From NCBI GenBank assembly GCA_964016885.1, contig OZ024740.1, forward strand, positions 91,512,001 through 91,576,000: 64,000 nt of DNA. The letters are read 5' to 3'. Within the stretch, counting starts at the first letter, position 1, and every line of letters starts with the position of its first letter. The stretch comes from Eledone cirrhosa. Lineage: Eukaryota. Under the pieces are notes generated by a model that was not told where the DNA came from, made no database searches, and worked only from the letters and a program-made list of their open reading frames with translations. A program made the position numbers and the translations under genes. Positions 7,311 through 7,761 of this stretch are shown here, piece by piece.

Positions 7311-7761
7311 GATATTAAATAAATGGAAACTATATTTATAAAACCATATTTATTTCGTTATATATATTTCAGGGATATCTTAACAATATGTTATGCCTTC
7401 TTCAGACAAAATACAATATAAACAGTCTTATAAATAAATAGATACGACATACCTTTCAATCACCTTGCATTTGGGAGGTTGATTTGGACTGCCAAATCAA
7501 CCTCCCAAATGCAAGGTGATTGAAAGGTATGTCGTATCTATTTATTTATAAGACTGTTTATATTGTATTTTGTCTGAAGAAGGCATAACATATTGTTAAT
7601 ATGATATCCCTGAAATATATATAACGAAATAAATATGGTTTTATAAATATAGTTTCCATTTATTTAATATCATAAATATACTCCAAATACTTGTTGAGTG
7701 CTTATATATCAGTTATAAATATTTACTCGTTGTTAACCCAACAATTTAAATATAACTTTTC
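7311..7761. mobile_element. family-1 hammerhead fold-back (near-perfect palindrome, ~180-bp arms, 4-nt loop at 7488-7491) with a ~90-bp one-sided tail
   Basis: HHR cores CTGAAGA at 7405-7399 (-) and 7574-7580 (+), GAAA 7612-7615, UAUAUA stem III palindrome. Tail 7672-7761 is homologous to the reverse complement of 1095-1185. Confidence 0.88.

Follow-up and report, generated by a model that had tools for sequence, protein, structure and literature searches.

A duplicated, bulged hairpin beside the insertion ends of Hydra-clade Penelope-like elements in Eledone cirrhosa, a putative signal for twin priming

Structured elements in the template RNA that are recognised by RT for TPRT include the 3' stem-loops of L2, CR1 and RTE LINEs and the R2 3' UTR, and bulged or short RT-bound hairpins that fix where copying starts or stops are found in the hepadnavirus epsilon and the telomerase template-boundary element. 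The hairpins described here differ from both kinds. The LINE and R2 elements are copied a single time and are located 5' of a start at the 3' terminus, whereas the present hairpins lie 3' of internal starts and are duplicated, and the second would stay uncopied at initiation; the bulge of epsilon is the template for protein priming and the telomerase element brings copying to a halt, whereas the ends found here are 5' of the hairpin and target DNA would be the primer. Among Penelope-like elements (PLEs), whose tail and inverted structure are known (PMC8557442; PMC3846280) and whose pseudo-LTRs carry hammerheads (PMC4209133), the Hydra clade of Craig et al. (2021, PMC8557442) is defined by RWx, DKT, CxCX5C, CxxC and CxH motifs, a C-terminal GIY-YIG endonuclease (EN), a hammerhead and (TA)n targets. 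Statements drawn from these papers refer to their accessible text. Our elements have in common with that clade the RT and EN motifs, hammerhead, (TA)n, an inverted 5'-truncated copy and a tail at one end; its tail is given as 30-40 bp in a text that describes no hairpin, whereas ours measures roughly 70-160 nt and tracks hairpin spacing. In PAc, a Poseidon element of the green anole (Frangieh et al. 2024, PMC11167929), two internal RT starts bound the tail in vitro, both target strands are extended, sense RNA is used, RNA 3' of the start is needed, to +172, and a dimer is predicted. The choice of start, the one-sided tail and the origin of the inverted repeat are posed as open questions in the accessible text (PMC8557442; PMC11167929).

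The window analysed is a stretch of 64,000 nt (GCA_964016885.1, contig OZ024740.1, positions 91,512,001 to 91,576,000) and part of a 3-Gb animal genome. The locus of interest is a family 1 insertion between (TA)n runs, with a short inverted arm (7311..7487, -) and a long arm (7492..7761, +) that both end in (TA)n; the short arm stops 5-7 nt before the place of a first hairpin (SL1), at a point equivalent to 7672-7674. Along the long arm follow a minimal type I hammerhead ribozyme motif of the pseudo-LTR (7566..7631, +; core CUGAAGA at 7574, by pattern scan and sequence), a UA-rich stretch with the short end (7668..7679, +; end at about 7672-7674), which the sequence, the short-arm ends and TATA/ATAT enrichment across families mark as a putative primer-landing site, and a tail made of SL1 and the spacer to the long end (7675..7761, +). 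In read-through copies a second hairpin (SL2, GCUC...GAGC) comes about 10 nt further on, and then ATG (L040/L039 junction). SL1 itself (7680..7699, +) has a basal ACUC/GAGU helix, a UU bulge on the 3' side and an inner CAA/UUG helix; the letters ACTC (7680-7683), GAGT (7696-7699) and GCTT (7700-7703) were checked, and the predicted fold is a bulged hairpin that is weak alone (-2.9 kcal/mol, z -0.85). Among the 150 of 206 Rfam matches listed, all below the gathering score, none covers 7680-7699 and none is a hammerhead, the listed ones being microRNA-like and other sub-threshold matches; a general repeat search of the window was swamped by microsatellites.

The original prediction had cited nine such stems as a conserved, covarying RCUC...GAGY element shared by divergent families, and direct sequence check finds the coordinates and strands of all nine as given, each a few bases 3' of its own family's short-arm end. 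Besides the stem at 7680-7699 they comprise SL1 of a family 1 subfamily at 1158..1177 (-), in the long inverted end of an ORF-bearing copy, and at 58598..58617 (-); SL1 of family B at 8310..8334 (+; inner CAGU/ACUG, UA bulge) and 21215..21239 (-), the latter with a remnant of a Hydra-type endonuclease (22690-22337) about 1 kb upstream of it; SL1 of family A at 53068..53091 (+), with more copies at 61338-61361 (+), 29056-29079 (-) and 496-519 (-); two GCUC/GAGC hairpins at 41947..41980 (+) and 48538..48559 (-); and SL1 of family F at 61865..61904 (+). The two GCUC/GAGC hairpins had been ascribed to a single family E; blastn gave no alignment of 41947 with 48559, and they are the SL1 of two families, E1 (SL2 in L143) and E2 (SL2 in L300, L301, L303 and L305). 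Likewise, the ACCC...GAGU form ascribed to family F is present at its site but is a change specific to that copy, three others having ACTCC (L307, L311, L315). The stem is common to six families (1, A, B, E1, E2, F); in this sequence form it is a feature of the Hydra clade and not of all PLE tails. Two unlisted families carry the motif as well: family G has an SL1-like hairpin at 9885..9903 (+), and family H has SL1 at 21026..21060 (+) and 20217-20251 (-) and an SL2 (UCUC/GAGA) at 20125..20142 (-), the sole second hairpin found within the window. Family H forms short tandem and inverted units with both hairpins (19596-21130; period about 690 nt in L009), and, having no linked ORF, is possibly a non-autonomous passenger. 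A strict-motif match at 31277-31304 (-), off the mapped families, may mark another PLE tail. Matches of ACTC...GAGT at 1569-1586, 5073-5089 and 5347-5364 fail the inner-pair rule and were not counted.

The proteins and ribozymes suggest that the Hydra-clade definition applies to families 1, A, B, E1, E2 and F, though the set of motifs read varies by family. A single Hydra-type ORF with RT and C-terminal GIY-YIG is intact in family A and left as remnants or RT halves in 1, B, E1, E2 and F, the reading in E2 and F being of the RT half. In family 1 it is broken (2045..3952, +; PF01541 at E 0.004, below Pfam's cut-off), and the pseudo-LTR downstream in this copy has its hammerhead at 5650 and terminates near 5756, at the short end. 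Translations read by eye contain the RWK-type motif and the change of DKG to DKT (LRWRTF and SDKTGN in A, LRWIAY and SDKTNN in B, VRWRTF and ADKTNN in E1, LDKTDN in family 1), and the CxCX5C linker and endonuclease CxxC and CxH are represented by CNCPDRSIC, CNLC and CKH in L037 and CNCRNKSNC in L017. Predicted hammerheads in the pseudo-LTR and (TA)n targets were found by pattern scan and from the flanks. Published Hydra proteins were compared by eye, outside our tree; a PDB search up to E 1 gave no relative of the protein, and families G and H are assigned by the hairpin motif alone, a search for an ORF link having found none. A SECIS/Naiad identity was dropped, the endonuclease being C-terminal and canonical hammerheads present. 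By eye, the hammerhead of family A (L037:6700-6840, -; window 29100-29230, -) has a U3-A8 core variant UUGAGAA, with stem II long and stem III rich in GC. The window also contains a 730-aa Hydra-type ORF (36254-38443, -; also L071), whose 3' region is long and AT-rich and where no hammerhead was found over 2.2 kb, and tandem hammerhead-bearing, retrozyme-like repeats free of the hairpin motif (23800-24700; also L036, L044 and L053). LINE-type RT ORFs lie at 15112-17316 (-), 25309-28691 (+) and 42480-45549 (-), with an AP endonuclease domain in 25309-27606.

The full motif of the Hydra-clade elements is a bulged hairpin, NCUC-Y...R-UH-GAGN', and its 2-nt 3' bulge, covarying inner helix and second copy were absent from the original prediction. 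The four basal pairs say little by themselves: RCTC-N4-40-GAGY has 55 matches on the plus strand of the window against 40.0±6.3 in 100 local shuffles and, being its own reverse complement, is uninformative of strand. A stricter pattern with the bulge and the next pair, set only after these examples had been seen, has 18 matches against 3.75±2.0 in shuffled sequence, 15 of them in element tails or 5' UTRs. A set of 78 metagenome loci from outside this genome was chosen by protein alone; 46 of these have an ORF start and at least 100 nt upstream, forming 35 clusters. Up to 190 nt upstream of the ORF, 25 of these 35 families have at least two NCUC...GAGN' stems, seven have one and three have none, by a loose stem caller that puts a few stems in the wrong register; at least two stems occur in 3.4% of shuffles and 1.2% of 403 ORF windows. 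Among published consensuses inspected by eye, one clear hairpin is seen in the tail of Hydra-2_Amil and two at the start of Hydra-1_Ajap, Hydra-1_Crog and Hydra-1_Amil have partial motif matches, and the hairpin was not seen in the examined parts of Hydra-1_Obim.

Pairing inside the hairpin was counted in 55 stems of 31 metagenome families, picked by basal helix and 3' flank only, one of them an overlapping false call that was removed later. With a 2-nt 3' bulge the first inner pair forms in 52 of 55 stems, as against 2, 1, 5 and 15 with bulges of 0, 1, 3 and 4, the bulge having been spotted by eye ahead of this count. The pair above the bulge is C-G in 39 stems, U-A in 12 and U-G in one; the bulge reads UU in 32, UC in 13, UA in seven and otherwise in three; the loop ranges from 8 to 26 nt. 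Inner pairs 2-3 are formed in 55 of 66 cells against 27.1±3.8 when permuted, and none of 5000 permutations, which take no account of kinship, was as high. On an RT tree of 38 rows from this genome and the metagenomes, where seven rows had their labels set by hand and the third label of these was left unused, switches between U-A and C-G, counted by eye, number at least three in SL1 and two in SL2. The outer pair has become U-A in SL1 and SL2 of one clade, and A-U in SL1 of four families of this genome. The predicted covariation, which had been drawn from a basal change of A-U to G-C, therefore gains support from pair switches and inner-helix pairing beyond that change. These are anchored pair counts and not the output of RNAalifold or a covariance model, MAFFT having aligned 16 hairpins with their 5' strands in the wrong register. 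The basal pairs are part of the minimum-energy fold in 50 of 52 hairpins; single hairpins fold weakly (z -0.28 to -2.49), and family B favours another register.

We find that the motif occurs twice between hammerhead and ATG in Hydra-clade elements. In all six cited families a second hairpin stands directly past the long end of the tail: in family A a GCUC...GAGC stem lies a few bases past that end, ahead of the ATG, in the intact tandem array L037/L038; in family 1 an ACUC/GAGU SL1 and a GCUC/GAGC SL2 belong to one element; and E1 likewise has SL2 past the long end, as does H. From A, 1, E1 and H, SL2 was forecast for B, E2, F and G and found in B, E2 and F, with search patterns that already contained its 5' half-site and, for F, also GAG; the read-through pattern for G had no matches. 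Family B gave 317 pattern matches, and most of the 100 among the matches listed share one continuation; SL2 is present in six of seven read-through pattern matches of E2, and the read-through copies of B, E2 and F continue into Hydra-type ORFs. Across seven families of this genome the spacing from SL1 to SL2 is 78-163 nt, and it sets the length of the tail. The array L037/L038, about 25-40 kb upstream of the window, consists of head-to-tail intact family A units with a period of 3542 nt. Many intact 784-aa frames of family A, 94-100% identical, occur genome-wide, so the family is young. Upstream of the ORF in L228, L230 and L249, one subclade has a third, shorter RCUC...GAGU-AG stem right after the hammerhead, and Hydra-1_Amil is similar.

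Where do the insertions end with respect to the two hairpins? In 654 kb (the window and 59 stretches) chosen irrespective of the motif, 72 of 81 classifiable ends fall within -3..+14 nt of a hairpin, 38 of them long and 34 short, and nine fall elsewhere; eight further ends read through and two touch an edge. Of 29 metagenome alignments, eight at a contig end and two read-through cases were set aside, and 16 of the remaining 19 ends, from 14 clusters, lie -1..+4 nt before the hairpin, three lying elsewhere. Short ends fall before SL1 and long ends before SL2, each end blurred by several bases of TA microhomology. A UA-rich stretch is found 5-6 nt upstream of the hairpin: TATA or ATAT occurs within 12 nt upstream of 29 of 52 stems (9, 3 and 2 in control windows), UA starts at -6 in 24 of 52, and SL1 and SL2 have both motif and upstream UA spacing in common. 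Outward-pointing inverted pairs in the unbiased set combine a long with a short end in 21 of 25 cases, and none combines like ends, the odds being 0.5^21 under independent, even ends. Overall, 118 inverted pairs, at loci many of which were chosen for containing a tail, comprise 89 long with short, one long with long and no short with short, and in the other 28 an arm reads through, is off-site or is cut. Long ends of family F (window 61940-61965 and pattern matches) often have a variable (TC)n between element and (TA)n, which may reflect stutter of the RT as it initiates; the search pattern was biased towards copies of this kind.

We think it likely, at a probability of about 0.65, that the hairpins act in sense RNA as putative protein-binding sites that set the two priming points of the RT, a programmed twin priming; action in RNA over DNA, protein binding, a dimer, primer annealing and joining of cDNAs are what we infer here. 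The endonuclease would nick both strands of the (TA)n target, and two enzyme units, probably a dimer, would occupy SL1 and SL2 of a single transcript. Each nicked 3' end would anneal to the UA immediately upstream of its own hairpin and be extended in the direction away from it. The cDNA begun at the SL2 site would take in SL1 and the spacer, that is, the tail, and the cDNA begun at the SL1 site would not, so that twin hairpins as start marks would account for a tail on one side; once joined, the two cDNAs would form an inverted repeat whose ends differ, one being long and the other short. SL2 would never be copied at the start, and both signals would consequently stand behind the pseudo-LTR only in tandem, read-through or circular transcripts. 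The original prediction of a cis-element that positions internal priming gains support from the end positions and the UA spacing but was incomplete, the hairpin being bulged, present twice and a mark of the long end too. Weighing against the priming reading are flat strand tests, the weakness of single hairpins, the off-site ends, the want of a read-through copy in family G and the stem-poor families, and also two points taken up below: PAc, of another clade, starts inside an AC-rich loop, and a non-Hydra family has two ends that lack CUC/GAG.

The hairpins might instead act at the level of DNA, whether single-stranded cDNA or an extruded donor: they would direct the GIY-YIG endonuclease to a cut in the element's own TA-rich spot, 5-6 nt upstream, and the ends would be cleavage products of an intermediate; we consider this unlikely. 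The UA stretch suits a cut site as well as a primer site, and upstream TA agrees with the preference for (TA)n targets. The motif reads almost alike on either strand, and wobble pairs give no strand signal (five internal G·U against four A·C); neither wobble nor folding tests separate sense RNA from antisense RNA or single-stranded DNA. In the accessible text, 'EN-mediated resolution' is the origin that Craig et al. give for the tail (PMC8557442), and Frangieh et al. cite a D. virilis EN that required tail DNA for recognition (PMC11167929). Against cleavage, the RT start sites of PAc measured in vitro equal its genomic ends (PMC11167929), and a double-stranded DNA site is argued against by the variation in loop length (8 to 26 nt) and by inner-helix covariation.

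The strict pairing of long with short ends is predicted as well if a single enzyme primes solely at the SL2 site and the short arm is a fold-back copy of the cDNA halted by SL1, which would then be a block and not a start, and palindromes at the centre of insertions were previously read as self-priming (PMC3846280). We regard this as quite improbable, given that the downstream end of ORF-bearing copies is the short site, their long end being that of the far inverted arm (window 1097-5756), that PAc starts at both sites and extends both strands (PMC11167929), and that SL1 and SL2 are alike in motif and upstream UA spacing. If the template were instead an antisense transcript, the hairpins would be boundary elements that stop copying in the manner of telomerase RNA; an antisense template was once proposed for Penelope (PMC3846280), PLE RTs are sisters of telomerase (PMC8557442), and the antisense strand has the lower folding energy in 44 of 52 cases. 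That energy gap may stem from loop composition only, the opposite ends of the copies, which would have to be starts, are ragged, and PAc used sense RNA in vitro (PMC11167929), which together leave the antisense template very doubtful. Signals of the 5' UTR, for translation control, packaging or hammerhead folding, with TA stretches alone setting the ends, seem to us most improbable. In most metagenome families the end of SL2 is indeed some 20-50 nt short of the ORF start, and the PAc hammerhead depends on protein (PMC11167929), but UTRs hold many TA-rich stretches and the ends gather at the two of these that adjoin hairpins; tail length, moreover, follows hairpin spacing over 78-163 nt, which argues against ends set by TA stretches alone. 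Chance matches of a four-base inverted repeat, suggested by a bare pattern near the window background, are rejected for the full motif, whose position, duplication and inner covariation are far above controls.

Twin priming on paired hairpins resembles what is described for PAc in the two ends that bound the tail, and the use of both strands and of 3' RNA and the dimer, seen or predicted for PAc, would apply here too (PMC11167929). PAc differs in that it starts inside an AC-rich loop and homology to the target is denied, and a conserved or repeated motif goes unreported in the accessible text (PMC11167929). A closed start loop of the PAc type was not found in our elements: their ends are 5' of the hairpin, and the 3' flank pairs with upstream sequence no more than expected by chance (818 of 2000 permutations). 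The printed PAc RNA, inspected by eye, has a UCUC...GAGA stem at +126-139 that lacks the Hydra bulge (PMC11167929). The original prediction knew of no description of the element. This holds for the hairpin motif in the literature searched, although figures, closed supplements and subscription papers may contain one, and the accessible text of bioRxiv 10.64898/2026.07.22.740005 does not mention it; internal priming in an 'AC-rich stem loop' had, however, already been published for PAc (PMC11167929). The hairpin pair may thus be a new form of a known kind of signal, a cis-acting RT recognition signal. A duplicated, covarying hairpin at a fixed distance from both ends opens the published questions of start choice, one-sided tail and inverted repeats to direct mutant tests, and the motif aids in finding true ends and 5' UTRs when Hydra elements are annotated. 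PLE RTs are the sister group of telomerase, and their mode of RNA recognition bears on telomerase origins.

We propose, tentatively, that EN+ PLEs in general use programmed twin priming, with an RT-endonuclease dimer reading two repeated hairpins on one RNA and using both nicked strands. With equal reserve, the sequence of the hairpin could be specific to the clade, NCUC/GAGN in Hydra and UAUC/GAUA in a second clade here. Were this general reading true, the placement of the signals 3' of what is copied would account for the tail, for the inverted repeats and for why tandem pseudo-LTR or circular transcripts are required, and the hairpins would make up a portable signal for writing RNA into both strands of DNA. 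Another hammerhead family has one end, and the motif is absent in its 29 loci. A non-Hydra PLE family with a CX4CxxC linker and an RYVDD RT has two fixed ends about 60 nt apart without CUC/GAG (L379-L402; L320-L348). Each end in this one family, read by eye, is followed by AAUAUCG...CA(A)GAUA, with a candidate UAUC/GAUA helix whose inner UC/GA pairs are common to the Hydra motif, and this sequence is a possible clade-specific counterpart of the twin hairpins. In the printed PAc RNA, two AC-rich loops about 40 nt apart can be seen by eye; helices at +107-123 and +145-168 close them, and the second ends just inside the minimal RNA, which runs to +172.
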